Shown here piece by piece: positions 15,277 through 32,864 of a stretch of 64,000 nucleotides of DNA. Made by a program: the position numbers and the translations under genes. Position 1 is the stretch's first letter, and each line of letters starts with the position of its first letter. Under the pieces are notes generated by a model. That model saw only the letters and a program-made list of their open reading frames with translations, was not told the origin of the DNA and ran no database searches. Origin of the DNA: Candidatus Dormiibacterota bacterium (GTDB taxonomy: Bacteria > Chloroflexota > Dormibacteria > CF-121); assembly GCA_036782775.1 (NCBI GenBank), contig DAIPYJ010000007.1, positions 1,082-65,081 on the forward strand, written 5' to 3'.

Positions 15277-17709
15277 TTAGCTCGCCTTCCGCTTCTGCTC
15301 GTATAGGGTGGCGTCCGCGGCGGCAAGCAGCTGCTCGACCGTCCGACCCTGGTCGGGAAAGGTCGCCACGCCGAGGCTCACCCCGGGAATCTCGAGCAGC
15401 TCGCGACCGGCCATGAAGCGATGGCGGGCGATGCCGTCGGTGATGCGCTGCGAGACGCTCGCGGCCGCGCTCGCGCCCGTCGAGGGCAGCAACAGCACGA
15501 ACTCGTCGCCGCCGTAGCGGGCAACCAGGTCCTCGCCGCGGACCGCGTCCATCAATGCATTGGCGACTTCGCGCAAGAGGGCGTCACCGGCGAGGTGGCC
15601 GTAGGTGTCGTTGATTCGCTTCAACTCGTCGACATCGAGAAAGATGATCGAGAACGGAAGGGCATTTTGCTGCGCGCGCGCAATCTCCTCCTCGAGGCGG
15701 TCGAGGAAAAGGCGTCGATTGAAGAGCCTGGTCAAGGGGTCATGACTCGCCTCGCGCTTGAGCCGATCATGCAGCTGCGCGACTTCCAGGTTGGAGGCGA
15801 GCTGGGAACCGACCGCCGTCATCAATCCCAGGTCGTTCTCGGAAAAGCCGTCCAACTGATCGCTCTCGACATTGAGCACGCCGACCACGCGGCCGTGGCT
15901 GACGAGGGGAAAGGTCAGCTCCGACCGGACCTTGGGGTCGAGCCCGACGTAGCGGGCGTCTTTCTGCACGTCGGGGATGAGCAACGGCGTCCCGTGCGTG
16001 AAGACCCATCCGGTGATTCCTTCTTTTAGCGAGATGGTCATGCCCGTGATGTCGCGCTCGTATCCGCTGTAGGCGCCCACACACAGCTCCGTCTGCTTGT
16101 CACTCGGCAGCAGGATCGAGACGAGGTAATAGCCCATCACATCGCGAATGATGTTCACGATGCGGGCGAGCAGCGTGGCGAGCTCGAGCACCGCGGTCGT
16201 CTCCTGGGCGATCCGGTAGATGATGCGGAGCTCACGGGAATCGGCGACGCTCAGGATGTCCGTGCGTGCGGCTGCGCTGGGCTGCGCGGCAAGTAACGTG
16301 GCTTCGAGCTCCTGGTACCAGGCGAGCGGGCGCGTGGCCCCTTCGCGCACCATCTCGATGAACCGCTGCATGATTGCGGGGTCGAGGTTGATTCCGGCAA
16401 AATGCCCGAGCTCCTCAAGGCCCTCCGCGATCGTTCGTTCTGTCCTGTGCGGCAGGTCGAAGGTCACGTTGAAGAAGGCGTTGACCACCGCAATCACGCG
16501 GGTCTCGATCGGGATCGATTCGCCGGCGATCCCGTCCGGATAGCCCTCGCCGTTGAACCACTCATGATGGGACCGGACCACCGGGGCAAGGTCGGCCAGC
16601 GGCTTGAAGCGGTGCAGCAGGTCCGCGCCGACCACGGGATGCGTCATCACGAGGGCGCGTTCCTCGACGTCGAGCCGCCCGCGTTTCCTGAGGATGGTGT
16701 CCGGCAGGCTGAGCTTGCCGAGATCCTGGAGCAGCGCGGCGTAACGTACGCGCCGGCAGCGGGCTGTATCAAATCCCAGATGTTGGGCGAAACGTTCGGC
16801 TAGTTCAGCGTGCTCGCGCGCCCGGCTCCGCAACGCTTCTCGCAGGTCGATGGCGCTGGCGAGCATCAGCACGGTCGCTTCTTCGACTTCGCGCGATTCG
16901 GCCAGCAAGCGGGCGGTTTCCAATGCCGCTGCCGTCTGGTTGGCGAACGCCATGACCGCCGGAAGATCGCCCACCTGAAGCGTCGAGCCGATGACCGTGA
17001 TGACGCCGATCGCCCGCTCCGCCACCACCAGTGGCGCCGAGATCGCCGCTTCGGCTCCCAGCGCCGCGGTGATCTGCCGCGCATTTGCCGCCTTGCCCGG
17101 CCTTGCCCCATAGGCGATCCGCGCCATGAGCTCGTCCCGGTCGCCGACGTAGTGAGGGCGAAGCGTGCGGCAGACCTCCTGAAGCGTGGGCACGCGTTCG
17201 AAGGGGAAAAAGTCGTCGCCTCGATCGGCACCGGTCAGTCCGGCTAATTCACCAGCCGGCGCGAACGTCCGTCGGTAGACGACCCGGACCCCGCGACCGT
17301 CCGGCGTGCATTCAAAGAGAAAGGTCGAGCCGCCGGCTTGCGCCAGGCGATTGCCGACGGCTTCGAAGATCGCCTTCCGCTCCAGGGTTCGGCTGGCCTG
17401 CACGCCTGCCTCGCTGAGGGCTGTCAGCAGGGGGCTCGTGCGCGAGGCCGGTTCTTCGTCGTGGGCCGGGTTGACGTCCGGCGGTCGCAGGAACTGGGTG
17501 TAGCCGGCCTCGACCAGCCGTTGCGGCTGAAAGAACCAGACGCGACCGATCTTTTCCCCGGGCAGGCGGCCGGCGCGCACCTGGCGTCGCACGACCTCCG
17601 GGTGGCGATCGATGATGGCCGCCACCTCCTCGACCGAGAGCAACCCCGGAAATTTTGCGGAGGCAGCTGGCGCGGGTTGTGTGACGCGACGCTTCACTGC
17701 AGTCTGCAA
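15277..17709 (-). CDS. multidomain c-di-GMP signalling protein: excisionase-type HTH, GAF, HD-GYP phosphodiesterase, GAF, GGDEF diguanylate cyclase
   Basis: N-terminal LSVEEVAAIIDRHPEVVRRQVRAGRLPGEKIGRVWFF (HTH). HD domain with HHEWFNGEGYPDG. Second GAF, and a C-terminal GGDEF domain (RYGGDEFVLLL). The start at 17707-17709 is TTG, so the true start is uncertain. Confidence 0.75.
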   Translation of the reverse strand: MQTAVKRRVTQPAPAASAKFPGLLSVEEVAAIIDRHPEVVRRQVRAGRLPGEKIGRVWFFQPQRLVEAGYTQFLRPPDVNPAHDEEPASRTSPLLTALSEAGVQASRTLERKAIFEAVGNRLAQAGGSTFLFECTPDGRGVRVVYRRTFAPAGELAGLTGADRGDDFFPFERVPTLQEVCRTLRPHYVGDRDELMARIAYGARPGKAANARQITAALGAEAAISAPLVVAERAIGVITVIGSTLQVGDLPAVMAFANQTAAALETARLLAESREVEEATVLMLASAIDLREALRSRAREHAELAERFAQHLGFDTARCRRVRYAALLQDLGKLSLPDTILRKRGRLDVEERALVMTHPVVGADLLHRFKPLADLAPVVRSHHEWFNGEGYPDGIAGESIPIETRVIAVVNAFFNVTFDLPHRTERTIAEGLEELGHFAGINLDPAIMQRFIEMVREGATRPLAWYQELEATLLAAQPSAAARTDILSVADSRELRIIYRIAQETTAVLELATLLARIVNIIRDVMGYYLVSILLPSDKQTELCVGAYSGYERDITGMTISLKEGITGWVFTHGTPLLIPDVQKDARYVGLDPKVRSELTFPLVSHGRVVGVLNVESDQLDGFSENDLGLMTAVGSQLASNLEVAQLHDRLKREASHDPLTRLFNRRLFLDRLEEEIARAQQNALPFSIIFLDVDELKRINDTYGHLAGDALLREVANALMDAVRGEDLVARYGGDEFVLLLPSTGASAAASVSQRITDGIARHRFMAGRELLEIPGVSLGVATFPDQGRTVEQLLAAADATLYEQKRKAS

Positions 17710-17744
17710 CGAAGGAAGCCACGGCTTCCTACGTCGTACCTGCC

Positions 17745-18755
17745 GTGGATCCGCTGCCTTCCGGCCCTATGCCGGAGCGCCGCACCATCCTGGTCACGGA
17801 TGACAGCGCCGCCAACCGCGATCTGATCTGTGGGCAGCTCTCCACGCTCGGCTTCTGGACCGAAGCGGCGACCAACGGCGAGGAGGCAATCAGCGCCGCC
17901 CGCCGGCTGAAACCGGACCTGATCCTGATGGACGTCGAGATGCCGGTGATGAACGGGCACCAGGCCTGCCGGCAGCTCAAGTCCGATCCCCAGACTGCGG
18001 ACATTCCGGTGCTGATGATGACGGGCTTCGATCCCCGGCCGGAGCGCGTCAAGATGGTCGAAGCCGGCGGCGACGACCTGATCGTGAAGCCGGTCCCGAT
18101 GCGCGACCTCCAGGTGCGCGTCCGGGCGCTGCTGCGGCTCAAGGAACTGCGCAAAGACCTGCGCAGCACGCAGGAAAGCCTTCGCGAGCTGGTCAAGCGC
18201 GAGAACCCCACTGAGTCGAAGGCGCCCTTCGACGACAGCGTGGCGCTGACTGCCCAGGCGCTGGCTCGGCTGATTGGTCTCGACGCCGAAGACCAGGAGG
18301 TCGCATTCCACGCCGGGTTGCTTCATGACATCGGGCAGATCGGCGTGCCGGAGGAACTGTTGAACAAGCAAGGCAGCTACACGCCCGAAGAGTTCGCCCA
18401 GATCCAGAAGCACACGGTGCTCGGCGCCGAGATCGCCGGACCGTTCCGTCCCGCCTCGGTGCTGGCGCCCGCCATCAGGCACCACCACGAGCGCTGGGAC
18501 GGTTCGGGCTACCCTGACAAGCTGCAGGGCCCGGCCATCCCGATGATGGCCCGCATTGTCGCCGTCGCCGACGCGTTCCACGCGATGATCATCGACCGCC
18601 CTTACCGGCCTCGGCATACCGTGGGCAAGGCGCTCGAGATCCTCGCGGCCGGCGCCGGCACGCAGTGGGACCCGCGGCTGGTCTCGGCCTTCGCGACCTC
18701 ATCGCTGCCCCAGCGCATCGCCGGTACGCCAAACGAAGAAGCAAAGATCGCGTAG
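17745..18755 (+). CDS. response regulator with HD-GYP output domain (RpfG-like c-di-GMP phosphodiesterase)
   Basis: Receiver ILVTDDSAANRDL...LILMDVEMPVMNGH...K. HD-GYP domain with HAGLLHDIGQIGVP and HHERWDGSGYPD. Confidence 0.8.
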   Translation: MDPLPSGPMPERRTILVTDDSAANRDLICGQLSTLGFWTEAATNGEEAISAARRLKPDLILMDVEMPVMNGHQACRQLKSDPQTADIPVLMMTGFDPRPERVKMVEAGGDDLIVKPVPMRDLQVRVRALLRLKELRKDLRSTQESLRELVKRENPTESKAPFDDSVALTAQALARLIGLDAEDQEVAFHAGLLHDIGQIGVPEELLNKQGSYTPEEFAQIQKHTVLGAEIAGPFRPASVLAPAIRHHHERWDGSGYPDKLQGPAIPMMARIVAVADAFHAMIIDRPYRPRHTVGKALEILAAGAGTQWDPRLVSAFATSSLPQRIAGTPNEEAKIA

Positions 18756-18831
18756 GCCGCTTCAGCGGCCCGCCCGTTTGAGTCTCTGAAGTAACTGCGC
18801 CCCGAAGGACGAGCGCATGCCCGTGGAAACA

Positions 18832-18859
18832 GTTCGGCCGGCCCGAAGGCCGGCCGAAC
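18832..18859 (-). terminator. strong intrinsic terminator downstream of pilA
   Basis: GTTCGGCCGGCC-cgaa-GGCCGGCCGAAC forms a perfect 12-bp stem. A second hairpin, GGCCGC-ttca-GCGGCC at 18763-18778, follows the convergent plus-strand gene. Confidence 0.6.
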
Positions 18860-18880
18860 CAGGGTCACAATGTCAGTCGA

Positions 18881-19294
18881 TCAGTTGAAGGTGCAGGTCG
18901 CGTTCAGGACGCCGTGGACGGTGCCCTTCGGCGGAGACGCCTTGTAGGTGAAGGTCTCGGTCGCCGGCGGAGCCTGGTGCAGCAGGTTGGCGTTGACGAG
19001 CTCGGTCGTGTTCACCGCGTCACCGGCGGCCGGGGTCGCCGTGTCGCCGCCAGCGGCGCCATCGGGATAGACGTTGTTGGTGTAGTAGTACAGGTCGACC
19101 GCGCCCTGGATGGTCGAACCGTCGGTCTTCATGGCGTTGCACGCCGCAGTCGCGTTGACGCCGGCGATGTTGAAGAGCACGATGGCGGCCAGTGCGCCCA
19201 GGATCGCGATCACGACGAGCAGTTCGACGAGGGTGAAGCCGCCCTGGCCGCGCCGGGATGCGCCACGGCCCTGCTTGAGGATTGAAAGAACCAT
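18881..19294 (-). CDS. pilA: type IV major pilin (prepilin with class III signal)
   Basis: Leader ending ...RRGQGG followed by FTLVELLVVIAILGALAAIVLF (the prepilin cleavage/methylation motif). 137 aa with two Cys in the C-terminal half. It is the last gene of the operon and is followed by a strong terminator. Confidence 0.8.
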   Translation of the reverse strand: MVLSILKQGRGASRRGQGGFTLVELLVVIAILGALAAIVLFNIAGVNATAACNAMKTDGSTIQGAVDLYYYTNNVYPDGAAGGDTATPAAGDAVNTTELVNANLLHQAPPATETFTYKASPPKGTVHGVLNATCTFN

Positions 19295-19327
19295 TGTTGT
19301 CGTATTACCTCCTTACTCACAGTCGAG

Positions 19328-19358
19328 ATTAGAGTCACTTTCTTGCGAGATCTGTAAA
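19328..19358 (-). promoter_or_regulatory. candidate internal sigma70-like promoter for pilA (weak call)
   Basis: The minus strand reads TTTACA-19 nt-TCTAAT in a locally AT-rich 70-nt gap upstream of the pilA RBS AAGGAGG. The 19-nt spacing is non-ideal. Confidence 0.2.
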
Positions 19359-19365
19359 ACGCCGG

Positions 19366-19517
19366 TCAGCGCAGTAGCAGTTGGGTCACGGCGATCGCCG
19401 CCAGCGCGACGGCCACCAGGGCGGCGGCGACCAGCAGCAGCGGTCGAGCGCGCCGGCCGAGACGGGGCGGCGCAAAGTCGACGGCGACCTGGGGCTTGCG
19501 ATCAGGCCGCGACACCG
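19366..19517 (-). CDS. tiny single-TM ORF (about 49 aa) overlapping the pilM stop; possible PilN remnant or micro-protein
   Basis: GTG start 8 nt after AAGGAGG, which lies inside the 3' end of pilM. It encodes VSRPDRKPQVAVDFAPPRLGRRARPLLLVAAALVAVALAAIAVTQLLLR, a positive N-terminus followed by one TM. Confidence 0.3.
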
Positions 19518-20413
19518 GTGTCACCTCCTTGTGACGGGCTGAGGCGAGGCTGCCAGCGCTCCTGCTGAAGGAGGCCGATTTCGGCGAAATGCGCCTGCCA
19601 GGGAAAGTCCGCGGATGCCTGCAGCCGAGTTTGCGGCGAACGAGCCTGGAAGCCGAAGCTTTGCCCGGCGCGTTCCGGTCCGCCATCGAGAAAAGCGAAG
19701 CGGCCACTCACCACAAGTGGTGTCCAGGGTCCGATGCTGATATCCGGCGCGGCGCCGCGCATGAACTTGACCAGCGCGGCCACCGAGAGGGATAGCTCCT
19801 CGAACTGCGCCTCGGCGTCGTCGGGGGGAGCGTCCAGTTGAAAGGTTCGCAAGAACCTGGGCCGGCCGCCGGCCATCAGGACCAGGGTCGCCTCGACGGC
19901 GCCCCACTCGAGCAGCAAGCCGTCGGCGACCCCCATGCCACGTGCCAGGGCCAGCGGCTTCAGGTCCATCCGTTCGACCGTGAGCCCTGCCGCGCCCAGT
20001 GCCGAGATGACGCCGTCGATCATGGCCCGCCGGGCAGCCACCAGGTAGACGGCGTATCCGCTGGCAATCCGCTGCGCCTGCCAGGCGAAATAGACATCCT
20101 CGGGATCCAGCGGAATCAACCTCCGCCCTTCAAACAGCACGGCACTGCTCAGCTCGCTGGCAGGAAGGCGGGGCAAACGAAAGTCGCGAAAGGCTGTTCC
20201 GGTCTCGGCAATGGCCACTCGCACCGTTCCGGGAGAAAATCGCTGCTCCTGGATGACGCCGCGAACCACGGCGGTCAGCAAGGGCGTCGGGATGCCATCG
20301 ACGACCGCCCCATCTGGCAAGAGCATCTCGGCATGGCGCGTGAGCTGTCGGCCGTCCGCCTCCAACAGTCGCAACTCGCGATTGCCAAGGTCGAGACCAA
20401 GCCGCCGGCTCAC
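19502..20413 (-). CDS. pilM: type IV pilus assembly protein PilM (actin-like ATPase fold)
   Basis: GTG start at 20411-20413 overlaps the upstream stop (GTGA), with GGAGG 6 nt upstream. The N-terminus VSRRLGLDLGNRELRLLEA matches the PilM signature. The longer 449-aa ORF in the track is an out-of-frame artefact upstream of this start. Confidence 0.7.
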   Translation of the reverse strand: MSRRLGLDLGNRELRLLEADGRQLTRHAEMLLPDGAVVDGIPTPLLTAVVRGVIQEQRFSPGTVRVAIAETGTAFRDFRLPRLPASELSSAVLFEGRRLIPLDPEDVYFAWQAQRIASGYAVYLVAARRAMIDGVISALGAAGLTVERMDLKPLALARGMGVADGLLLEWGAVEATLVLMAGGRPRFLRTFQLDAPPDDAEAQFEELSLSVAALVKFMRGAAPDISIGPWTPLVVSGRFAFLDGGPERAGQSFGFQARSPQTRLQASADFPWQAHFAEIGLLQQERWQPRLSPSQGGDTGVAA

Positions 20414-20847
20414 TGGTAGGCCTCCCAGGTCACGGCAGAGGTTCCGTTTCCGAGCTCCGTCACGAGGGCCGTCAAGCTCCGCGCGGTGCCGCTGGCGGTA
20501 ATCGTGAGGTTCCAGGTGGCGCCGTTGCCATGACAGGGGTTTCCTTTTCGGATGCGGGTGGTGACCGTAATTGGCGAACCGGCGTAGTTCAGGGTCACCG
20601 CACTCGTTCCAGGCGCATTGCAGCCATTGCCGTTCTTGTCGTCGATCGCTTGCATGCCATAGGCGAGCCCGGCGTCGAGCGCGTAGGTTGTGCGCGTGTC
20701 CGCCTTCACACCGGAGAGGCTGAGGAAAGCGCTGCTGGCCAGCGTCAGCGCCGCCGCAACAACGAGCAAGAAGGCGGCGACAAAGGTCATCACGATGAGC
20801 AATGCCTGGCCGGCTTCGGCGTGACGCTGAGGACGCATCAGAAGCAT
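20410..20847 (-). CDS. PilX-like / pseudopilin-like pilus assembly protein
   Basis: N-terminus MRPQRHAEAGQALLIVMTFVAAFLLVVAAALTLAS resembles the PilX_N hydrophobic segment. 145 aa. Coupled to its neighbours. Confidence 0.5.
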   Translation of the reverse strand: MLLMRPQRHAEAGQALLIVMTFVAAFLLVVAAALTLASSAFLSLSGVKADTRTTYALDAGLAYGMQAIDDKNGNGCNAPGTSAVTLNYAGSPITVTTRIRKGNPCHGNGATWNLTITASGTARSLTALVTELGNGTSAVTWEAYQ

Positions 20848-21308
20848 CCACCAGGCCGGTTACCGACGTTCAAGGTCGACGCGCTGGCGCCGGTCGTCGA
20901 CGGCTGAATGGTGACTGTGGCGTAGCAACCGATCGTCATCAGGGTGATGCTGGTGATCTCCCGGGCGGCCGTCTGGGCGCTCCCGTTGACGGTCCTGATC
21001 AGGTTGTTGCTGCCGTCCACGCTGTAGATCACGGTCGTCAGCGTCGCCGGAGCTCCATAGGTCAGGGTGATGGTGCTGACGCCGCCGGCGGTTCCGGGCA
21101 CGAGTGCATTGGCGCTGTTGAGATCCTTGACCAGGACCAGGCTGGCTTCGTTGACCGCCGTGTCGGCCGCGATCGCGCGCGCTTCCGTTGTCAGCGTCTG
21201 GTAGCCGACCAGGAAGGTGCCGGCGAGGGCGATGCTGACCACCACCATGATCGCGACGCCGACCGCCATTTCCACCAGGGTGAAGCCATGCTGCTGGCTA
21301 CGCCTCAT
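20838..21308 (-). CDS. minor pilin (prepilin-type N-terminal cleavage/methylation domain)
   Basis: MRRSQQHG then FTLVEMAVGVAIMVVVSIALAG. Confidence 0.7.
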   Translation of the reverse strand: MRRSQQHGFTLVEMAVGVAIMVVVSIALAGTFLVGYQTLTTEARAIAADTAVNEASLVLVKDLNSANALVPGTAGGVSTITLTYGAPATLTTVIYSVDGSNNLIRTVNGSAQTAAREITSITLMTIGCYATVTIQPSTTGASASTLNVGNRPGGCF

Positions 21309-21685
21309 GGTTGCTCCTTCAGAAAGAGAAGCTGCTCCCTACTACTGTTGGGACCGCTGACCGTAAGGCTGATCTCTTGCAGCCCGGCATCCGGGTTGGT
21401 GGTCTTGAAGCTGACCGGTGGTCCGGCAGCGTAGTTGAGGACTTGATAGCTGAACGAATAGCCAGCGCTGGTGAGGTTGGTATAGGTACCCGTCGTCGAG
21501 TACGCCTGACTCTTGATGTATTCGGCGTTGGAGCGGGTCAGGGTGTCAAGCTTGGTCAGTTGCTGATGGCGCGTCGCCGCGATGGTTGCCGCAGAAAACG
21601 CGCTCAGGATCGAGACGACGATGACGGCAAGCAGCGCGACCGCCACGGTGGTCTCGATCAGCGTGAAGCCGCGCTTGCGGTTCAT
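21305..21685 (-). CDS. minor pilin (prepilin-type N-terminal cleavage/methylation domain)
   Basis: MNRKRG then FTLIETTVAVALLAVIVVSILS. Its stop overlaps the downstream start. Confidence 0.7.
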   Translation of the reverse strand: MNRKRGFTLIETTVAVALLAVIVVSILSAFSAATIAATRHQQLTKLDTLTRSNAEYIKSQAYSTTGTYTNLTSAGYSFSYQVLNYAAGPPVSFKTTNPDAGLQEISLTVSGPNSSREQLLFLKEQP

Positions 21686-22908
21686 TTGATCGCCCCCACC
21701 AGCCCGTACATTGCCGAGATCAGCGAGATGGCGATAAAGCCGACGACCGCGCCGACCGCGATCGTCATCGCCGGCTCGATCATGGCCGTCATCGAGCGAA
21801 TCCGATGGTCGAGCTCTTCTTCGTAGAACTCGGCGGCCTGCTCCAGGTAGGTGTCGAGCGTTCCTGTCTCTTCACCAACGCGAACCATCTGCGTCAGCAT
21901 TGGCGGAAAGAGATGGGTGCGGAGCAGCGGGCCGGCGAAGCCTTCGCCTCCCGTCATCTGTTCCTTGACCCCGCGTAGGCCCTCCTGAAAGACGCGGTTT
22001 CCCGTGCTGGCGATCACGGCGTCGAAGGTCTGACCGAGCGGCACGCCTGCTTTCAAGACCATGGCAAGGGTTCGGGCAAAGCGGTTCAGGATCGCCGAGA
22101 GCACGATCGGGCCGAAAACGGGGATCCTGATCGCGATCACGTCCTTTCGATATCGGCCCCAATCGGTGCGGAGCGCCGCGACGGTGCCGGTGACCAGGGC
22201 GGCCAGGCCAACGCCGACTTCGAGCGCCCAGGTTTCCAGGAAGGTGACGATCCCGAGCAGAATGCGGGTCGGCAACGGTAGCTCGACCTTGAACTCGGCA
22301 AAGATGCGCACAAATGCCGGCAGCGCGAAAACCACGAGGATGATGACGACCCCGACGGCCAGCAGCAGGATGACGGTCGGATAGATCAGCGCCGATCGCA
22401 ACCGTCGCAGGGTGTTCAGGTCACGCCGGAGATAGACCGCGAGCTGTTGCAGCGTCGCCTCGAGATTTCCGGTCAGCTCGGCGACGCGGATCAGGTCGAT
22501 ATAGAGCTGAGAGAAGACGTTCGAGTGCTTGGCGAGGGCATCAGAAAGGTTGAGCCCACGTTCAAGGTCGTCGAGGATGGCAAGAATGACGCGCTTGAAG
22601 AGGGGTGAGGCCGCTTCTTCCGCCATGGTGCCAAGCGCGCGGCTCATCGGAACGCCGGCGCCGACGAAGGTTGCCAGCTGTCGAGTGAAGAGGATGATGT
22701 CGGCTTGTGAAATGCGAAACAAGGTGGGGAAGTAATCCGCCATCGTCTTGGCTGGTGGCGCCGGGTAGAGGCGGACGATCTTGAGCCCCTGCAGCCAGAG
22801 GCTCTGTTCGGCAGCGGAGCTGCCTTCGGCCTCGACCCGACCCTCGCGGCGCTCACCGTTCTCGGTGTACGCGCGATAGGCGTAGCTAGGCACCGCTGCC
22901 CTCGACAT
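21682..22908 (-). CDS. pilC: type IV pilus platform protein PilC (T2SS-F family)
   Basis: 408 aa with two T2SSF repeats and polytopic membrane topology. Confidence 0.85.
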   Translation of the reverse strand: MSRAAVPSYAYRAYTENGERREGRVEAEGSSAAEQSLWLQGLKIVRLYPAPPAKTMADYFPTLFRISQADIILFTRQLATFVGAGVPMSRALGTMAEEAASPLFKRVILAILDDLERGLNLSDALAKHSNVFSQLYIDLIRVAELTGNLEATLQQLAVYLRRDLNTLRRLRSALIYPTVILLLAVGVVIILVVFALPAFVRIFAEFKVELPLPTRILLGIVTFLETWALEVGVGLAALVTGTVAALRTDWGRYRKDVIAIRIPVFGPIVLSAILNRFARTLAMVLKAGVPLGQTFDAVIASTGNRVFQEGLRGVKEQMTGGEGFAGPLLRTHLFPPMLTQMVRVGEETGTLDTYLEQAAEFYEEELDHRIRSMTAMIEPAMTIAVGAVVGFIAISLISAMYGLVGAIK

Positions 22909-24610
22909 GGACCGACCGGATTACTTCGCTAATCGTCGTCAGGCCCTCGTCGACCTTGGCGATGCCCGCGCTTCGCAGCGTCATCATGCCTTCGCCGATG
23001 GCGCGTTCCCGTAGCGCTTCCGGCGGAGCATCACGAACCAGCAGGCGCTTGATCGCCTCGCTCATCCGCAGCACCTCGTAAACCCCGATCCGGCCGAGGT
23101 AGCCGGTGTGCGCGCACGAGGCGCACCCCGTGCCACGCCGAAACTCGGTCGCGACCCCGCCGGCGGCGCGGTAAAAACCGAGCTCATCCGCAGGCGGCTC
23201 GTAGCCTACGGCGCATTGCAGGCAGATCCGGCGCACCAGGCGCTGCGCCAGGACCCCGATCACGGCGGACGTCACCATGAACGATTCGATGCCCATTTCG
23301 ATAAATCGATAGATGGCGCCGATGGCGTCGGTGGCATGGAGGGACGAGAGAACCAGGTGGCCGGTGAGCGCCGACTGCACCGAGATCTCGGCCGTCTCCT
23401 TGTCGCGGATCTCGCCGACCAGGATGGCGTCCGGGTCCTGCCGGAGGATGGCGCGCAAGCCATTGGCGAAGCTGATCCCAGCCAGACGGTTGATCTGGAT
23501 CTGGTTGACGCCTTCGAAGGTGTATTCGACCGGATCCTCGATCGTCATGATGTTGCGCTCGACATGGTCGAGCTCGTTGAGCGAGGAATAGAGCGTGGTC
23601 GTCTTGCCACTTCCGGTCGGCCCGCTGACGAGCACCATGCCGTAAGGCGATCGGATCAACGAACGGTAGCCGTCAAGGGCCGAGGGCGCGAAGCCGAGGC
23701 TATCGAGGCCGAGGATCGATCGCGACCGTTCGAGCAGCCGGAGCACGACCTTCTCGCCCCAGATGGTCTCGATCGTTCCGACCCGGATGTCGAGGGGCCG
23801 TCCTTCGACGGTTGTCTGGATCTGGCCGTCCTGGCTGTGCCGGCGGTCGACGATATCGAGGTTGGCGAGCAGCTTGACGCGGGAGGCGATCGGCGCCGCC
23901 AGCGTCGCGGGCAGCCGGGTCGCCTCATGCAGGACGCCGTCGATGCGAAAGCGAACCCGCAGATGATCTTGCTGCGGCTCGATGTGGATGTCGGAAGCGC
24001 GCTCCTCGGCGCCTTCGGCAATGATCAGGTCGACGATCTGCACCACCGGCGCATCCTTGTTGACTTCGGCCAGACGGCGGCTCGGCCCCGCAGGCCGAAG
24101 CGTTTCCTCGAAGGAGCGGACGTGACGGTCGACGCCGGTTCGCAGCTTGTAGAACTGTCCGATCGCCTGCTCGATCTCCGAGCGCACGCCCAGCAGCGGC
24201 TTGATCCGTTTCCGCGTCAGCACCTTCAGCTCGGCGAACAGGGCCAGGTCGCCGGGGTCGACGGTGGCAACCTCCAGCTCGTCCTTGTCGAGACGGACCG
24301 GCAGGATGGCATGCTCGCGGGCGTAGGCCTCGGGGATGAGCGCCAGCGCATCTTTCTCGACTCGGGTACGCGTGAAATCGATCAGCGGCACCTTGAAGTG
24401 CTGGCTGAGCACGCGCGCCAGCGCCTTTTCCTCAACCAGCCCCTGGGCCAGCAGGACCTGCCCAAGCGGCTGTCGGCGCCGCCGCTGCTCGCCCAAGGCG
24501 GCGTCGAGCTGTTCGAGGGTCAGCAACCCGTTCTCGAGCAGCAGCTCTCCCAGTCGTTTATCCTGCCGAAGCCCGAGGCCGCTGGTTGGTTGACGTTCGA
24601 CCGCGCTCAC
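22886..24610 (-). CDS. pilB: type IV pilus assembly (extension) ATPase PilB/GspE
   Basis: N-terminal GSPII_E_N domain (LLENGLLTLEQLDAALGEQ), Walker A GPTGSGKTTTLYS, and a CxxC...CxxC tetracysteine motif. GTG start overlaps the upstream stop (GTGA). Confidence 0.85.
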   Translation of the reverse strand: MSAVERQPTSGLGLRQDKRLGELLLENGLLTLEQLDAALGEQRRRRQPLGQVLLAQGLVEEKALARVLSQHFKVPLIDFTRTRVEKDALALIPEAYAREHAILPVRLDKDELEVATVDPGDLALFAELKVLTRKRIKPLLGVRSEIEQAIGQFYKLRTGVDRHVRSFEETLRPAGPSRRLAEVNKDAPVVQIVDLIIAEGAEERASDIHIEPQQDHLRVRFRIDGVLHEATRLPATLAAPIASRVKLLANLDIVDRRHSQDGQIQTTVEGRPLDIRVGTIETIWGEKVVLRLLERSRSILGLDSLGFAPSALDGYRSLIRSPYGMVLVSGPTGSGKTTTLYSSLNELDHVERNIMTIEDPVEYTFEGVNQIQINRLAGISFANGLRAILRQDPDAILVGEIRDKETAEISVQSALTGHLVLSSLHATDAIGAIYRFIEMGIESFMVTSAVIGVLAQRLVRRICLQCAVGYEPPADELGFYRAAGGVATEFRRGTGCASCAHTGYLGRIGVYEVLRMSEAIKRLLVRDAPPEALRERAIGEGMMTLRSAGIAKVDEGLTTISEVIRSVHVEGSGA

Positions 24611-24798
24611 GCCGCGGCTCGGATCGGCCCTCGGAGCTGCTTGCGGATCTCTTCGAGCATCTCCGGCGTAAAGCGAAGATGCCGGCCTGGAGTACGAAAC
24701 GCCGCCTGGATGTCGCCACGGTTCACCGCTCGGATCAAGGTCGACTTGCTGATGCCCAGCACGCGGGCGGCTTCGGACGTCGACAGGGCCGGCTTCAT
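24607..24798 (-). CDS. excisionase/MerR-like HTH DNA-binding protein (63 aa) embedded in the pilus operon
   Basis: LSTSEAARVLGISKSTLIRAVNRGDIQAAFRTPGRHLRF is an HTH_17/excisionase-family fold. Its stop overlaps the pilB GTG start. Confidence 0.6.
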   Translation of the reverse strand: MKPALSTSEAARVLGISKSTLIRAVNRGDIQAAFRTPGRHLRFTPEMLEEIRKQLRGPIRAAA

Positions 24799-24842
24799 CA
24801 GCTCTCCAAGCGGAGCAAACGCGTCAACTGCCGCAAACTTGC

Positions 24843-25928
24843 TTAGGCGGCCAGGCGGCGCAGTTCCTCAGGGTGCTGGCTCCGGGTGGCCGCGAGGTTG
24901 TAATCGATCAGACCGGCGCGGATGAGGTCGCTGAGACTTCGCTCCATGGTGTTCATGCCCTCCTTGGCGCTCGTCTCCAGCACGTTGCGCAACTGGCGGG
25001 TTTTCCCCTCCTTGATCAGGTTCTGGACCGCGATCGTGTTGAGCAGAACCTCGAAGGCGGCGACTCGGCCCGGCCCGTCGCGCCGAGGCAGCAGCTGCTG
25101 ATAGATCACCGCCGCCAGCGTGCTCGACAATTGAATGCGGACCTGCTGTTGCTGCTCCGCCGGGAAGACGTCGACGATGCGGTCGACGGCCTGGGTGGTG
25201 TCGTTGGTATGCAAGGTCGCCAGCACCAGGTGGCCGGTTTCGGCGATCGTGATCGCCGCCGCGATCGTCTCGAGGTCGCGCATCTCACCCACCAGGAGCA
25301 CGTCGGGAGTCTGGCGCAGGGCGGCGCGCAGGGCGTCCGAAAAGGAGGCGACGTCCGCGCCCACCTCCCGTTGCTCGACAATACTGCGCTGATGCCGGTA
25401 GACATACTCGATCGGATCCTCGATCGTGATCACGTGGCAGGGCCGGTTGGCGACGATGTCGCTCACCATGGCGGCCAGCGTCGAGGACTTGCCCGACCCG
25501 GTTGGACCGGTGACCAGGATCAGTCCCTGGTTGAGCTTGGTGAGCCCGCGGACCACCACCGGCACGCCCAGCTGGTCGAAATTCGGAATCTGGTAGGGGA
25601 TGAGCCGCAGGGCCAGCCCGACCGAGCCCCGCTGCATGAAGGCGTTGATCCGGAAGCGCGCCTCGCCGCGCCAGTTGAAGGAGAAATCGAGATCGCGGCG
25701 CTCCTGGAACTGCTTCCAGCGCTCCCCCGACAGCACTTCGCGCGCCATCTGCTCGATCTGCTCGGGGCGCAGCGGCTGCGGCGCGATCGGGACGAGCGCG
25801 CCGTCCTTGCGCATGGTGGGCGGCGCCCCGGCGGAGAGGACGAGGTCGGACGCCGCCTGCTCCAGGAGGACCTGCAGATAGGCGTCAATCGTCAGGGCTG
25901 GCTGGGCTGGCTGGCCGGAGGGCGCCAT
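24843..25928 (-). CDS. pilT: twitching-motility retraction ATPase PilT
   Basis: Walker A GPTGSGKSST, plus the AIRNLIRE-like motif (IAVQNLIKEGK) and His box. 361 aa. Confidence 0.85.
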   Translation of the reverse strand: MAPSGQPAQPALTIDAYLQVLLEQAASDLVLSAGAPPTMRKDGALVPIAPQPLRPEQIEQMAREVLSGERWKQFQERRDLDFSFNWRGEARFRINAFMQRGSVGLALRLIPYQIPNFDQLGVPVVVRGLTKLNQGLILVTGPTGSGKSSTLAAMVSDIVANRPCHVITIEDPIEYVYRHQRSIVEQREVGADVASFSDALRAALRQTPDVLLVGEMRDLETIAAAITIAETGHLVLATLHTNDTTQAVDRIVDVFPAEQQQQVRIQLSSTLAAVIYQQLLPRRDGPGRVAAFEVLLNTIAVQNLIKEGKTRQLRNVLETSAKEGMNTMERSLSDLIRAGLIDYNLAATRSQHPEELRRLAA

Positions 25929-26347
25929 TGATCGACATCCTGTGCAACCTCCTCGGCGCAGCCTTCTTGCTTCCGCTGGGGAGTGCCCTTGGCAGCTTCT
26001 TTGAGGTGGTTCTCGATCGCGTGCCGCGCGGCGAATCGCTGCTCTGGCCCCCCTCCCATTGCCGCATCTGCAACCGGCGGCTGACGCCCGACGAGCTGGT
26101 GCCCGTGATCAGCTACCTGGCGCAGCATGGGCGCTGCCGAGGCTGCGACACGAGGATCGGCCGCGGCGTCCCGATTCGCGAGGGGCTGAGCGGGCTGGCG
26201 CTGGGTCTTCCCTGGCTGCTGGCCGGCTGCCAGTATCCGTCGATCGCGCTTGGTGTTGGCATCGTCGCGCTCCTCGTGATCTGGATCGCTCGCGGGCTCA
26301 CCCAGGGTCCCTTGCCGCGGACGCCGGACAGAACCAAAAGCAATTAA
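25928..26347 (+). CDS. pilD: prepilin peptidase N-terminal (Zn-ribbon, DiS-P-DiS) domain only; the A24 catalytic domain is absent or truncated
   Basis: LGSALGSFFEVVLDRVP...SHCRICNRRL...VPVISYLAQHGRCRGCDTRI...IRE matches the PilD N-domain, including both CxxC pairs. The ORF stops at TAA 26345-26347 after 139 aa. The TTG start shares a base with the pilT start codon. Confidence 0.6.
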   Translation: MIDILCNLLGAAFLLPLGSALGSFFEVVLDRVPRGESLLWPPSHCRICNRRLTPDELVPVISYLAQHGRCRGCDTRIGRGVPIREGLSGLALGLPWLLAGCQYPSIALGVGIVALLVIWIARGLTQGPLPRTPDRTKSN

Positions 26348-26377
26348 GGCTGCCGACCGACGTTACCTGTAACGGTT

Positions 26378-27232
26378 GTGAAACTGACGGGCCCGCTGCT
26401 GCGCGAAGTCGTCGGCATCCGGCGAATCGTCGCGCTGGCGATTCTGCTCGCGGCGGTAGCCGCCGTCGCTTACCTGGAGCGGTCGGTCGCCGGTGACATC
26501 GATCTCCGTCTGGTCTATTTCTTGATCGTCCTCTCGGGCGCGATGCTGCTGCCGCGGATGGTCGCGTTGAGCGTGGCGGCGGCGGTCGCGGTCGTCAGCG
26601 TCGGGGTTAGTGGCGCCCAGGGCATGAGCCTGGCTATCAACGGCGTCACCCATCTGCTGATGTACGGCTACGCGGCGCTGCTCACCAACAACTGGGAGCA
26701 GGAACGCCGGCGCCTGATGCGGATGAGCCGGGTCGACGACCTCACCGGGCTCTACAACCTGCGCGCTCTCAAGGAGCAACTGCCGATCTGGCTGGGACCG
26801 GCGGCGCGGACCGGCCGGCGCATGACGGTGATGATGATGGACATCGACGGCTTCAAAGAGGTCAACGACCGGCTCGGCCATGGTACCGGCAACGAGCTGC
26901 TCAAAGAAGTCGCCAACCTGCTTCGCTTCGCCGTGCGCATCGGCGACGAACCCTTCCGCTTCGGGGGCGACGAGTTCGTCTTGCTGCTGGCCGACGCCGA
27001 CGCCGACGGAGCCATGGTGGTCGGGACCCGCATCCAGGACATCTACCGCTCCATGGGACAGACGCTCCGCGGCACCAATATCGACGTCTCGTTCAGCGTC
27101 GGTCTCGCGATTTTTCCCGATGATGGCGCCACCCCTGAGCTGCTGCTGGCGCGCGCCGATCAAGCGCTCTATCAGGCGAAGCGGAGCGGCGCCGGCAAGA
27201 TCGCCCGTTACCGCGAATCTGCCGCCGCCTGA
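26378..27232 (+). CDS. membrane-anchored GGDEF diguanylate cyclase (possibly the downstream part of a disrupted fusion with the preceding ORF)
   Basis: About 110 aa of TM helices, then a GGDEF domain (RFGGDEFVLLL, with an intact RxxD-like I-site region). The GTG start has no SD and is in frame with the upstream ORF, 10 codons past its TAA. Confidence 0.65.
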   Translation: MKLTGPLLREVVGIRRIVALAILLAAVAAVAYLERSVAGDIDLRLVYFLIVLSGAMLLPRMVALSVAAAVAVVSVGVSGAQGMSLAINGVTHLLMYGYAALLTNNWEQERRRLMRMSRVDDLTGLYNLRALKEQLPIWLGPAARTGRRMTVMMMDIDGFKEVNDRLGHGTGNELLKEVANLLRFAVRIGDEPFRFGGDEFVLLLADADADGAMVVGTRIQDIYRSMGQTLRGTNIDVSFSVGLAIFPDDGATPELLLARADQALYQAKRSGAGKIARYRESAAA

Positions 27233-29962: not shown

Positions 29963-30669
29963 GATCGTTGGACGAGGATAGCAGCGGCCACGATCGGCGC
30001 CAGCCGCGCCCGCAAGATCCGCGGGCCAAGGTGCACTTCGATGCCGCCGCGCTCGCGCATCAGCGATCGCTCCTCGTCGCTCCAACCACCTTCCGGACCG
30101 ATCGCCAGCGCGTAGGCGGGAACCCTGTCAACCGCAACCAGTGCCCTGGTTGCTCGCGGGTCCAGCACGAGCAACTGATTCATTCCCGCGACCGCGTCGA
30201 CGGCGGCCTCGAGCGAGATCGGCCCGCGCAGCTCCGGCGCCCGGCCGCGATGGCTCTGTTCGGCGGCCGAGACCGCAATCGTTTGCCAGCGGCTGAGGCG
30301 GCTGGCAGCCGGACGGGCAATCGAGCGCGCCGCCTGCACGGCGATCACCTGGCTGACGCCGACCGCGGTCGCGGACTCGATCACTGCGTCGAAGTCCGGA
30401 TTCGGCAGCACCGCCTGGAGCAAGGTCACGCTCACCGACGGCTCACCGCCGATCGGCCGCCGTTCCAGCACCTGGGCTTTGACCGTCCCGTCGGCGACCT
30501 CGGACACCGCGACGTGATGCTCGATGCCCTCGGCCACCACCACGCCCTGCTCGCCAACTCGAACCCGAAGCACCCGCGCCAGGTGATGGCCCTTGCCGCC
30601 CGAGATCACGAGCTGATCGGTTTGTGGGCGGGTCTGGTCGAGCAGCAGCCAGAACAATGCCGTGCCCAT
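29959..30669 (-). CDS. rsmE: 16S rRNA (uracil1498-N3)-methyltransferase RsmE
   Basis: Shows the RsmE family pattern, including the C-terminal ...LAIGPEGGWSDEE motif. The ATG at 30667-30669 is preferred over the TTG at 30687. Confidence 0.7.
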   Translation of the reverse strand: MGTALFWLLLDQTRPQTDQLVISGGKGHHLARVLRVRVGEQGVVVAEGIEHHVAVSEVADGTVKAQVLERRPIGGEPSVSVTLLQAVLPNPDFDAVIESATAVGVSQVIAVQAARSIARPAASRLSRWQTIAVSAAEQSHRGRAPELRGPISLEAAVDAVAGMNQLLVLDPRATRALVAVDRVPAYALAIGPEGGWSDEERSLMRERGGIEVHLGPRILRARLAPIVAAAILVQRS

Positions 30670-30686
30670 GCTATCCGTCCACGCCA

Positions 30687-32864
30687 ATGGAAGGCTCTGC
30701 TATTGGCGTTGTATCCCGCAGCATGGCGCAGCCCGAGCTGCCTCGCGACCTCCACCGCGCGACCTTCAAGATCGCCGCCGTCTCTTTCTGGGCGGTCTCG
30801 GCGCTCGTCATGGCGAGCAGCTACGTCGCCAGCAGCGTGCCGGTCAACTACGCAGTCGAGTGGGCGATCACCGCCCTCGCCGTCGTCGCCGGCCTGGTGT
30901 GCTGGTTTCTTCCCTGGCAGCAGATCCCGCTGACGTGGTTTGTTCCCATCGTGTTTGGTGGGCTCGGGATGGAGACCATCGGCGTCTTCGCCACCGGCGG
31001 AACCCACTCTCACTTAACCGTCCTCTATCTGGTCGTGCTCGTCTTCACCGCCTCGATGCTGGCCTTCAGGGTGGCGCTCGCGGTGCTCGCCTACTCGATC
31101 CTCGCGGGCGTGCTGCCGCTCGTCGTCGACGGATGGGATGGCACCTACGTCCGCGCCTACATCATGCTGATCGCCTCGATGGTGATTTGCGCCTTCATTC
31201 CGGCACTGGTGCGGCGCGCGCTTCGGGAGGAGAACCAGCTGGCTGAGCGTCGCCGCGAGGAGCTCGAAGCCAGCTATCTCGCGACCATCGAGGCGCTGGC
31301 CACCGCGCTGGATGCGAAGGACCGGCATACCGAAGCGCACTCCCGCGAGACAGCTGCCCTTTCTCGAGCCGTCGGCCGCCGGTTGGGGCTCGAGGAAGAA
31401 CGATTGCGGTTTCTCGAGTACGCCGCGCTGCTCCACGACATCGGCAAGATCGGGATTCCCGGCTATGTGCTCAACAAGCCGGGGGCGCTCGATGCGGAGG
31501 AGATGGCGATCATGCGCGAGCATCCGGTGATCGGTGAGCGGATCGTCGCCTCGGTCCCATTTCTGAAGCGCATCCGGCCCATCGTCCGGGCCGAGCACGA
31601 GCGCTGGGACGGCGGCGGCTATCCGGATCGGCTGAACGGCGAGGCAATCCCGGTCGAAGCTCGCATCATCCACGCCTGCGATGCCTTTCAGGCGATGTCG
31701 AGCAACCGGCCGTATCGCCGGGCACAGCCGCTCGACTGGATCCTCAAAGAGATTCGCGGCCAGGCCGGCAAGCAGTTCGATCCCGCCGTCGCCGAGGCGT
31801 TACTGGCGGTGATCGAGGAGCGCGAGGTCGTCATCCAGGGCACCGCCGAATCCAACGATCACGAAGACCGGCCGCTCCCCGAGGCGCATTCGTGGACGCA
31901 GCACCTCGATGCGATCCAGCAGCTGGGAGCGCGGCTCTCGAGCGTGGTGGACGTGCCCGAGGTTTGCCAGACGATCGGGCAGGCCATCACCGAGCTGCTC
32001 CCCTACGACCAGTGCCGCGTCTACCTCCTGGAAGACGACCGCCGAACCCTTCGGGCTGCCTACTTCAGCGACAGCAATCGCGACGAGTACGAAGGGGTCA
32101 CCGAAGAAACGCTGGCGGCCCAAATCGGTGAAGGCATCACCGGTTGGGTGGCGGAGACCAAGCAGGGCGCGCTGGTCGGCGACACCGAGCGCCATCCCAG
32201 GGCGGTGCACATCCCGGGAACAACCGAGACCGAGGAATCGATGCTGGCGGTGCCCGTGATCTTCGAGGAGCGCCTGATCGGCGTCATCGTCATCGTCAAG
32301 GTGGGCCTGCACCAGTACAACGGCGACCATCTCCGCCTGTTGACGATCCTCGCCAATCAGGCGGCCGTTTCCATTCAGAACGCGCGCTTGATCGAGCGGC
32401 TGGAAACCACCGCGCGGACCGACCCGCTGACCGGGCTGGCCAACCGGCGGGCGTTCGAGCAGGAGCTCGAAGAGCATCTGGGAGCTGTGCCTAGCCAGCC
32501 GTTCGCCGTGATCATGCTCGACCTGGACGACCTCAAACAGGTGAACGACGAGGATGGCCACGCGGCCGGCGATGCCGTCTTGAAGCGGGTGGCCTCAGTG
32601 CTCGGCGATGGGCTGCGTGAGGGAGACATCGTGACCCGCTGGGGTGGCGACGAATTCGTCTTGCTGCTCCCGGGAATGGATCAGGTCGGTGCCTTGTCGA
32701 TGGCCCGGCGAGTCAGTGGGACGCTATTGGGATCCGAGCACGGCGGCCGATCCGTCTCCGTGTCGATCGGGATCGCGGTCTTCCCCTCGGACGGCACGAC
32801 GGCGGACGCGCTGCTTGCCGCCGCCGACCGCTCGATGTACGCCGAGAAGCGGCAGGTCGCCTAA
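30687..32864 (+). CDS. membrane sensor with HD-GYP, GAF and GGDEF domains
   Basis: Seven or so N-terminal TM helices. HD-GYP domain (LLHDIGKIGIP, EHERWDGGGYPDRL), then GAF and GGDEF (RWGGDEFVLLLPG). Start is ambiguous (30687 or 30723). Confidence 0.75.
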   Translation: MEGSAIGVVSRSMAQPELPRDLHRATFKIAAVSFWAVSALVMASSYVASSVPVNYAVEWAITALAVVAGLVCWFLPWQQIPLTWFVPIVFGGLGMETIGVFATGGTHSHLTVLYLVVLVFTASMLAFRVALAVLAYSILAGVLPLVVDGWDGTYVRAYIMLIASMVICAFIPALVRRALREENQLAERRREELEASYLATIEALATALDAKDRHTEAHSRETAALSRAVGRRLGLEEERLRFLEYAALLHDIGKIGIPGYVLNKPGALDAEEMAIMREHPVIGERIVASVPFLKRIRPIVRAEHERWDGGGYPDRLNGEAIPVEARIIHACDAFQAMSSNRPYRRAQPLDWILKEIRGQAGKQFDPAVAEALLAVIEEREVVIQGTAESNDHEDRPLPEAHSWTQHLDAIQQLGARLSSVVDVPEVCQTIGQAITELLPYDQCRVYLLEDDRRTLRAAYFSDSNRDEYEGVTEETLAAQIGEGITGWVAETKQGALVGDTERHPRAVHIPGTTETEESMLAVPVIFEERLIGVIVIVKVGLHQYNGDHLRLLTILANQAAVSIQNARLIERLETTARTDPLTGLANRRAFEQELEEHLGAVPSQPFAVIMLDLDDLKQVNDEDGHAAGDAVLKRVASVLGDGLREGDIVTRWGGDEFVLLLPGMDQVGALSMARRVSGTLLGSEHGGRSVSVSIGIAVFPSDGTTADALLAAADRSMYAEKRQVA

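Follow-up and report, generated by a model that had tools for sequence, protein, structure and literature searches.

The window analyzed here, a 64,000-nucleotide (nt) stretch of contig DAIPYJ010000007.1 from a Candidatus Dormiibacterota bacterium, carries a type IV pilus gene cluster in which a 63-amino-acid (aa) open reading frame (ORF) lies between the retraction ATPase gene pilT and the assembly ATPase gene pilB. The ORF encodes a small helix-turn-helix (HTH) protein, hereafter the micro-protein, and its coordinates, translation, stop, and start, as reported in an earlier note on this DNA, were all verified. The end of pilT (24843) is 44 nt upstream of the ORF, and the TGA stop codon of the ORF (24609-24607) overlaps the GTG start codon of pilB (24610-24608) to form the tetranucleotide GTGA. 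Immediately past the pilT stop codon starts a 36-nt noncoding block of four tandem 9-bp direct repeats, a candidate operator and a new observation beyond that note. The cluster is surrounded by genes for cyclic di-GMP (c-di-GMP) enzymes, one of them an 810-aa sensor that bears an HTH of its own. The GC content of the window is 65%, and its composition is uniform and host-like.

Is such a short ORF a gene at all? The sequence of the micro-protein, MKPALSTSEAARVLGISKSTLIRAVNRGDIQAAFRTPGRHLRFTPEMLEEIRKQLRGPIRAAA, is present without change in NCBI assembly GCA_036567485.1, contig DATCUH010000281.1, and 144 homologues share 70 to 94% identity with it, nearly all of them 62 to 64 aa long. The close relatives all come from Candidatus Dormibacterota or "Chloroflexi" soil metagenome-assembled genomes, and residues 3 to 44 are almost invariant among the homologues. 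Among 41 distinct DNA sequences compared over 44 codons, a pair differs at ~20 third, 2.4 first, and 1.5 second codon positions, with means of 18.7 synonymous versus 2.7 nonsynonymous codon differences (~7:1). The 144 homologues and the dominance of synonymous changes indicate more than a chance ORF: the micro-protein ORF is a real gene under strong purifying selection.

The assignment of its HTH to the excisionase/MerR type is borne out by both profile and fold. The micro-protein passes PF12728 (HTH_17) with 47.2 bits against a cutoff of 27 and TIGR01764 ("excise") with 36.7 bits against 28.8. The AlphaFold2 model (mean predicted local distance difference test score [pLDDT], 78.9) is a beta-alpha-alpha-beta-beta-alpha winged HTH with one C-terminal helix, with helices at residues 7 to 14, 18 to 27, and 45 to 56 and strands at residues 34 to 36 and 40 to 43. 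Its best Foldseek matches, with template modeling (TM) scores of 0.63 to 0.79, are RacA, HiNmlR, BldC, RdfS, CarH, and BrlR, DNA-bound MerR-type domains, and by sequence it comes closest, among solved structures, to the HTH of a cobalamin-binding protein (8JBS) and to the excisionase RdfS. The micro-protein is thus predicted to be a stand-alone DNA-binding protein of the MerR/excisionase-type winged-helix family, and its modeled structure falls in the BldC-like class, a MerR-type winged HTH without coiled-coil or effector domain. The features of a classical MerR regulator were not found: the chain stops at residue 63 with a single 12-residue helix past the wing, the block next to the gene contains no palindrome, and no sigma-70-type promoter was found near the gene. 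Several relatives of the HTH (P0179, P0183, P0184, P0212, and others) string 2 to 9 HTH_17 domains together in a single chain, in some cases joined to a family-2 glycosyltransferase, and others occur as one copy at the N terminus of GGDEF-EAL-PAS and histidine-kinase proteins, a recurrent architecture. Covalent tandem copies would fit head-to-tail binding of direct repeats.

The last ~40 nt before the micro-protein ATG are almost invariant in every locus, with the consensus GCAgGtTTGC.cCGcTTGACgCGTTTGCtCCggTTgGA. In the window, the block (24807-24842) reads GCAAGTTTGCGGCAGTTGACGCGTTTGCTCCGCTTG and consists of the 9-bp units GCAAGTTTG, CGGCAGTTG, ACGCGTTTG, and CTCCGCTTG, with the consensus nCnCG(T/G)TTG. 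Its mean pairwise identity is 0.80, compared to 0.31 in the preceding 30 nt and 0.55 at third codon positions in the adjacent gene; the block is conserved well above neutral expectation and far beyond synonymous sites. Autocorrelation within the block is 0.47 at lag 9 and 0.53 at lag 18, the lag-9 value being reached in 10 of 5000 column permutations. Pattern and position weight matrix (PWM) searches for this array, and for the inverted repeat described below, covered the window and ~130 related loci. In the 64-kb window, a phased-array PWM scan gave the block 33.9 bits versus 9.0 for the next independent site. The core regular expression had one match per locus in ~45 loci, always 18 to 31 nt before the HTH start, and the distance from block to ATG varies by ~13 nt. 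The PWM scan of 440 kb of sensor-anchored loci found no array except on contig L081, which apparently bears the HTH gene. At the level of sequence, the linkage of the array to the HTH gene is established across the phylum.

Other identities for the block were tried and rejected. As an RNA element, it gave 0 pairs when 20 diverse copies were folded with RNAalifold, and an Rfam scan of 17000-27000 returned nothing. As a canonical promoter, its near-invariant TTGAC hexamer lacks, on inspection by eye, a -10 element at 16 to 19 nt, and a sigma-70 scan placed no site near the gene. A sigma-54 reading was discarded by eye, the block misfitting the -24/-12 pattern.

The earlier note took the position of an HTH gene between the two ATPase genes as unusual; it is instead the rule in Dormibacterota and not an oddity of the window, since ~36 of the 38 species-level genome loci have the order pilT-HTH-pilB-pilC, as does every metagenome locus retrieved. 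Of 40 distinct HTH-pilB junctions, 39 share an RTGA stop/start overlap, and 31 have a Shine-Dalgarno (SD)-like GGAG/GAGG inside the last HTH codons. A conserved overlap of this kind is the arrangement of translationally coupled genes and, because the stop codon overlaps the pilB start, PilB synthesis is, at the level of sequence, tied to translation of the micro-protein, as had been proposed. Across loci, pilT and the HTH gene are 44 to 472 nt apart, and where the distance is longer (L015, L026, L033, L038, and L040), a GC-rich hairpin follows pilT directly before the repeat block. These hairpins, of which CCCTCCCCCGCGTGCGGGGGAGGG is an example, resemble terminators but have no T-run. In two lineages (L049 and L138), the gene upstream of the HTH gene is not pilT but an epimerase and a short-chain dehydrogenase gene, and the repeat block is still found together with the HTH gene, its overlap, and pilB. 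Since the linkage persists where pilT is replaced, the conserved unit is HTH-pilB, and the micro-protein ORF behaves as a leader gene for the pilB operon, not as one inserted between the genes for the two ATPases.

Two loci depart from this layout. In L034 (4500-6900), which is decayed or rearranged, the repeat block and an intact HTH gene come directly after a gene for a prepilin-peptidase N-terminal domain (A24_N); next are the remains of a pilin gene, then the response-regulator HD-GYP and sensor genes, and pilT and everything from pilB through pilM are missing. On L081, the repeat block (~420) lies only ~1.3 kb before the sensor gene. Both are either real deletions or assembly chimeras.

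How widespread is the arrangement? When 1.84 billion representatives were searched exhaustively with HMMER, a tight clade of ~14 scored above 100 bits, and generic HTH_17 proteins came next, and a genome scan for micro-protein loci gave only Dormibacterota-type loci and three weak unrelated matches. Two of the nearest outsiders to the clade are not adjacent to pilB. Comparable HTH-pilB arrangements in other phyla are possible. Our literature search turned up no paper linking an excisionase-type or HTH_17 gene to pilB or pilT and none describing Dormibacterota pili.

TABLE 1 Features of the pilus cluster and neighboring c-di-GMP genes in the window
Feature	Position	Strand	Support
Micro-protein, HTH_17 (MerR/excisionase-like winged helix), 63 aa, ATG start, putative pilB-operon leader cistron	24607-24798	-	PF12728, TIGR01764
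36-nt noncoding block, four tandem 9-bp direct repeats, candidate operator	24807-24842	-	Conservation, periodicity
GTGA stop/start overlap, micro-protein/pilB	24607-24610	-	Sequence
pilB, type IV pilus assembly ATPase, 574 aa, N-terminal MshEN c-di-GMP-receptor domain (predicted)	22886-24610	-	PF00437 419 bits, PF05157 70.1, NF053729 55.3
pilT, retraction ATPase	24843-25928	-	TIGR01420 462 bits
pilC, T2SSF platform protein, downstream of pilB in same operon	21682-22908	-	PF00482 206 bits; syntenic in all loci
Minor pilins, two	21305-21685, 20838-21308	-	N_methyl matches
PilM-like region	19502-20851	-	PilM_2 match
pilA, major pilin	18881-19294	-	N_methyl match
pilA upstream conserved elements	19295-19365	-	35 distinct sequences
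Response-regulator HD-GYP gene, divergent from sensor gene	17745-18755	+	
Inverted-repeat core, candidate sensor operator or 5' untranslated region (5'-UTR) hairpin	17711-17732	.	Conserved in relatives
Sensor, 810 aa: HTH_17 then HD-GYP, GAF, GGDEF	15277-17709	-	Domain profiles
Sensor HTH_17 segment, residues 23-63	17521-17643	-	PF12728 28.2 bits vs cutoff 27
GGDEF gene, 284 aa, upstream of pilT	26378-27232		
HD-GYP/GAF/GGDEF paralogue, 746 aa, without HTH_17, upstream of pilT	30624-32864		

What would a winged-HTH protein do with a direct-repeat array beside its own gene? We give a slightly better than even chance to the following model, which is drawn by analogy: the micro-protein leads a pilB-pilC-(minor pilins) operon, binds the 36-bp array head-to-tail, and autoregulates its own operon. 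Each subunit of BldC binds a 9-bp site in direct repeats, and a four-repeat 36-mer takes four subunits cooperatively in head-to-tail fashion (PMC5859096). The micro-protein would likewise occupy the candidate array as a head-to-tail multimer with one subunit per 9-bp repeat, that is, as a tetramer; the model is suggested by a geometry of 4 x 9 bp = 36 bp adjoining a gene of the BldC fold class, the conserved repeats here being a predicted site with the geometry reported for BldC. Binding would feed back on transcription of the operon, most likely as negative autoregulation, which is favored because the array fills the space from the pilT stop codon or the terminator-like hairpins to the ribosome-binding site. 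RdfS, an HTH_17 protein, binds its own promoter in negative autoregulation (PMC11963761). Translational coupling would then pass the regulated output to PilB, and autoregulation would keep the amount of assembly ATPase steady against pilT and pilA, both of which carry upstream elements of their own. For c-di-GMP from the four neighboring GGDEF/HD-GYP genes, the most likely path to the pilus is posttranslational, through the MshEN motifs of PilB and not via the micro-protein.

Several points weigh against this autoregulatory model. The micro-protein scores 18.5 bits against a cutoff of 77 for the BldC family model NF033787 and fails it, and the repeats bound by BldC are AT-rich (AATTxxxxC), whereas those here are GC-rich (nCnCGkTTG, with a TTG/CG core). 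Neither a -10 element at a fixed distance nor a transcription start could be placed near the micro-protein gene, so the sign of regulation is a guess, and with its TTGAC hexamer, the block could instead be a promoter element that RNA polymerase or another factor recognizes. The micro-protein and the motif are both nearly invariant, and a test of their co-variation is therefore not feasible. Further targets are possible beyond the ~1 Mb of sequence examined. Finally, binding is what we infer here, and for an uncultured organism.

The rival with the most to be said for it starts from that hexamer. It holds that the block is mainly a promoter or housekeeping cis-element of the pilB operon, recognized by RNA polymerase, a sigma factor, or another regulator, and that the micro-protein is a BldC-like pleiotropic or nucleoid-shaping protein with its main targets elsewhere. 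Besides the near-invariance of TTGAC inside the block, loci with a terminator-like hairpin after pilT leave no room for a promoter between hairpin and block, and both BldC and RdfS bind many sites with a weak consensus (PMC5859096, PMC11963761). A promoter, however, should hold a -10 at a fixed distance, which was not found, and the block-to-ATG distance shifts by the ~13 nt given above; nor is a fourfold 9-bp periodicity a property of promoters, and the block stays with the gene strictly even where the upstream gene has changed. We regard this explanation as unlikely, though it keeps appreciable weight.

A second rival makes the micro-protein act by contact with PilB, as chaperone, inhibitor, or tether, with an HTH fold that does not serve sequence-specific DNA binding. 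Conserved coupling makes both proteins at the same place and the same time, and the extreme conservation of residues 3 to 44 could reflect a protein partner. A 162-aa read-derived protein (P0182, SRR5713101) even fuses HTH residues 1 to 50 in frame to PilB, but it is a singleton of a short-read catalogue that may be chimeric and was set aside as evidence of interaction. The fusion joins PilB from about residue 45 and thereby deletes the first MshEN motif. Contact with PilB is improbable, given that the close structural relatives are all DNA-bound domains, that a conserved repeat array stands beside the gene, and that in the decayed locus L034 the HTH gene persists though pilB is gone. A shade more doubtful still is a variant of the binding model in which occupancy of the repeats by a micro-protein filament is set by PilB or c-di-GMP, or in which the micro-protein co-oligomerizes with the HTH_17 of the sensor; for example, PilB made in cis, or c-di-GMP-loaded PilB, might strip or stabilize the repressor. 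If true, this would be a feedback circuit in which the assembly state of the pilus motor, or its second-messenger load, sets transcription of the motor's own operon.

The earlier note saw the HTH of the micro-protein recur at the N terminus of the sensor and proposed that the two recognize a common operator set, so that c-di-GMP sensing would control pilus transcription. In part this stood. The sensor HTH_17 (residues 23 to 63) passes PF12728 marginally, at 28.2 bits against 27, so that both HTHs lie above the cutoff of the family; it is conserved in homologues as LLSVEEVAAAIxRHPEVVRRQARDGRLPGEKIGRVWFF, and AlphaFold2 models a winged HTH at residues 24 to 67 with pLDDT of 84 to 90. Taken together with its family match, the N-terminal HTH of the sensor is real. 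In all the long loci inspected, both genes keep their synteny with the pilus cluster, and the co-location of an HTH_17-bearing c-di-GMP enzyme with the pilus genes, which had been noticed in the window, is conserved across the phylum. N-terminal HTH_17 domains on GGDEF/EAL/PAS proteins, as described above, also belong on this side.

The segments themselves do not align, however. BLASTP of the micro-protein HTH against the sensor HTH aligned the wrong segments (E = 0.27), hhalign gave a probability of 0.2, and reciprocal family hidden Markov models run with filters off against the six-frame-translated window did not find the other HTH at E <= 10. The recognition helices differ as well (SKSTLIRAVNRG versus HPEVVRRQVRAG). 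The elements next to the two genes also differ in kind, a direct 9-bp repeat array versus a 10-bp inverted repeat of the form ACGTAGGAAG-N6-CTTCCTTCGT that fills the 35-nt divergent region at 17710-17744 (window copy, ACGTAGGAAG-N6-CTTCCTTCG at 17711-17732). The arms of the latter are invariant and its spacer is free; it is conserved in 6 loci and single copy in the window, and of 80 sensor-anchored metagenome loci, 73 contain exactly one copy. The repeat may serve the presumably dimeric HTH sensor as an operator or else form a 5'-UTR hairpin. In some relatives without upstream stop codons, gene callers translate it as "RRRK..LPSLQ".

A comparison of the regions upstream of pilA and pilT with 17710-17744 gave no inverted repeat in common, the one at 17711-17732 being unique. 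Across the window and the ~130 loci, array and inverted repeat are each single copy and never lie upstream of pilA or pilT, nor does either recur at the other HTH gene, the array being absent at the sensor and the inverted repeat absent at the micro-protein. Thus, neither the direct or profile similarity nor the shared motif that would mark a same DNA-binding module was found: the two HTHs belong to the same broad family and fold, the sequence evidence points to separate targets, and a common operator set is very improbable. This removes an unsupported inference, since membership in the same Pfam family does not imply the same operator.

The regions upstream of pilA and pilT have features of their own. 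The consensus upstream of pilA (35 distinct sequences) is TTtACr..CGCAAGA..TAnnCTCGAC..AAGGAGGTA, with a strong SD and no 9-bp array; the spacing of its elements misfits a standard 17-bp sigma-70 promoter. Upstream of pilT, the region extends into the 5' end of A24_N, a divergent gene, and the longest pilT and A24_N ORFs start back-to-back at 25928 with no intergenic DNA. Within that 5' end (window 25880-26000), ~45 nt show no third-position wobble in 18 loci (AGCGGAAGCAAGAAGGC ... CAGGTTGCACAGGATGTC on the pilT strand), and because of this absence, promoter or operator signals of pilT may be embedded in the A24_N coding sequence. A GCAAGA(A) core common to the pilA and pilT upstream regions was judged too short to interpret.

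If not through a common operator, how might c-di-GMP reach the pilus? The cluster is flanked by four c-di-GMP genes in conserved synteny, a GGDEF gene, an HD-GYP/GAF/GGDEF gene, the response-regulator HD-GYP gene, and the HTH sensor gene. PilB itself passes the MshEN models NF053729 (55.3 bits versus a cutoff of 38) and PF05157 (70.1 bits versus 23.1), and two tandem 24-residue MshEN motifs of the form RLGxx(L/V/I)(L/V/I)xxG(L/V/I)(L/V/I)xxxxLxxxLxxQ lie in its residues 17 to 70 (24400-24560), RLGELLLENGLLTLEQLDAALGEQ and PLGQVLLAQGLVEEKALARVLSQH, the second of which ends in H, not Q. MshEN domains are well established as receptors that bind c-di-GMP with high affinity (PMC5013675, PMC11731258). 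Because PilB has both motifs and MshEN domains bind c-di-GMP, a direct posttranslational route via PilB is most likely the c-di-GMP link to the pilus, and the best supported one. Hence, of the c-di-GMP-responsive control put forward earlier, control of the pilus is likely, with PilB MshEN and not a common operator as the route that the sequence supports.

In the sensor, the HD dyad of the HD-GYP domain is QD (AALLQDLGK, about residue 327) in the window, as it is for 52 of 53 orthologues, with HHExxxGxGYP, the GGDEF motif, and the RxxD inhibitory site (I-site) intact. This domain may have degenerated catalytically and serve in sensing instead. The response-regulator HD-GYP protein keeps both HD and GYP.

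That the micro-protein works as the excisionase (recombination directionality factor) of an integrated mobile element, as its TIGR01764 match, its JGI name of excisionase family, and the presence of RdfS among its sequence and fold matches might suggest, can be dismissed with near certainty, because there is no integrase or mobile element, the called genes within 6 to 10 kb (L001 to L007 and L049 to L052) including no integrase or recombinase, and because the place of the gene inside the pilus operon is fixed across the phylum (~36 of 38 species loci) in DNA of uniform, host-like composition.

Dormibacterota are abundant, uncultured soil bacteria, and to our knowledge, nothing is known about the control of their surface structures. 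The locus offers a testable pair, a 63-aa protein and a 36-bp array, and a second one in the sensor HTH and its own inverted repeat. If binding is as predicted, the head-to-tail mode of BldC and Xis would extend to a GC-rich motif, to a new phylum, and to a type IV pilus assembly operon, and the micro-protein would be a compact autoregulator translationally locked to the ATPase under its control.

Among known systems, PdeL of Escherichia coli is an HTH-bearing c-di-GMP enzyme that acts as a transcription factor, with a LuxR-type HTH and an EAL domain. Like PdeL, the sensor fuses a DNA-binding domain to a c-di-GMP turnover domain. The sensor has a palindrome in its own promoter region, and it differs from PdeL in having HTH_17, a degenerate HD-GYP (QD), and an intact GGDEF. 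MshE of Vibrio cholerae and PilF of Thermus thermophilus bear on PilB and not on the micro-protein: PilB here resembles them in its two 24-residue MshEN motifs and its passing of NF053729 and PF05157, its binding of c-di-GMP being predicted from these features.

For the micro-protein, the best structural matches to the winged-HTH core are the RacA domain and the MerR regulators HiNmlR, BmrR, CueR, and BrlR. These bind palindromes as symmetric dimers via long coiled-coil or C-terminal domains, whereas the micro-protein has one short helix past the wing and a direct-repeat array as its candidate site. With RdfS (8DGL) and the lambda and Pukovnik Xis proteins, it shares the HTH_17/TIGR01764 family and a small winged HTH; a head-to-tail arrangement on DNA, proposed for Xis and RdfS as oligomers akin to BldC (PMC11963761), is predicted for it as well. 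Unlike them, it is chromosomal in a pilus operon, and its loci have no integrase, att site, or mobile element. Streptomyces BldC (6AMA and 6AMK; Foldseek TM, 0.63 to 0.68), the founding member of the small MerR-like winged-HTH regulators, is likewise a stand-alone domain of ~60 to 68 aa without coiled-coil or effector domain, and the candidate site here likewise comprises 9-bp direct repeats in four units over 36 bp. BldC is a stand-alone pleiotropic developmental regulator, whereas the micro-protein leads a pilus operon and is coupled to PilB. The finding is accordingly a modest one, a clean testable protein/operator pair in an uncultured phylum and not a new kind of system, and the micro-protein adds a member to the small winged-HTH regulators of the BldC/Xis-like kind, here in a genomic role that is new for them.

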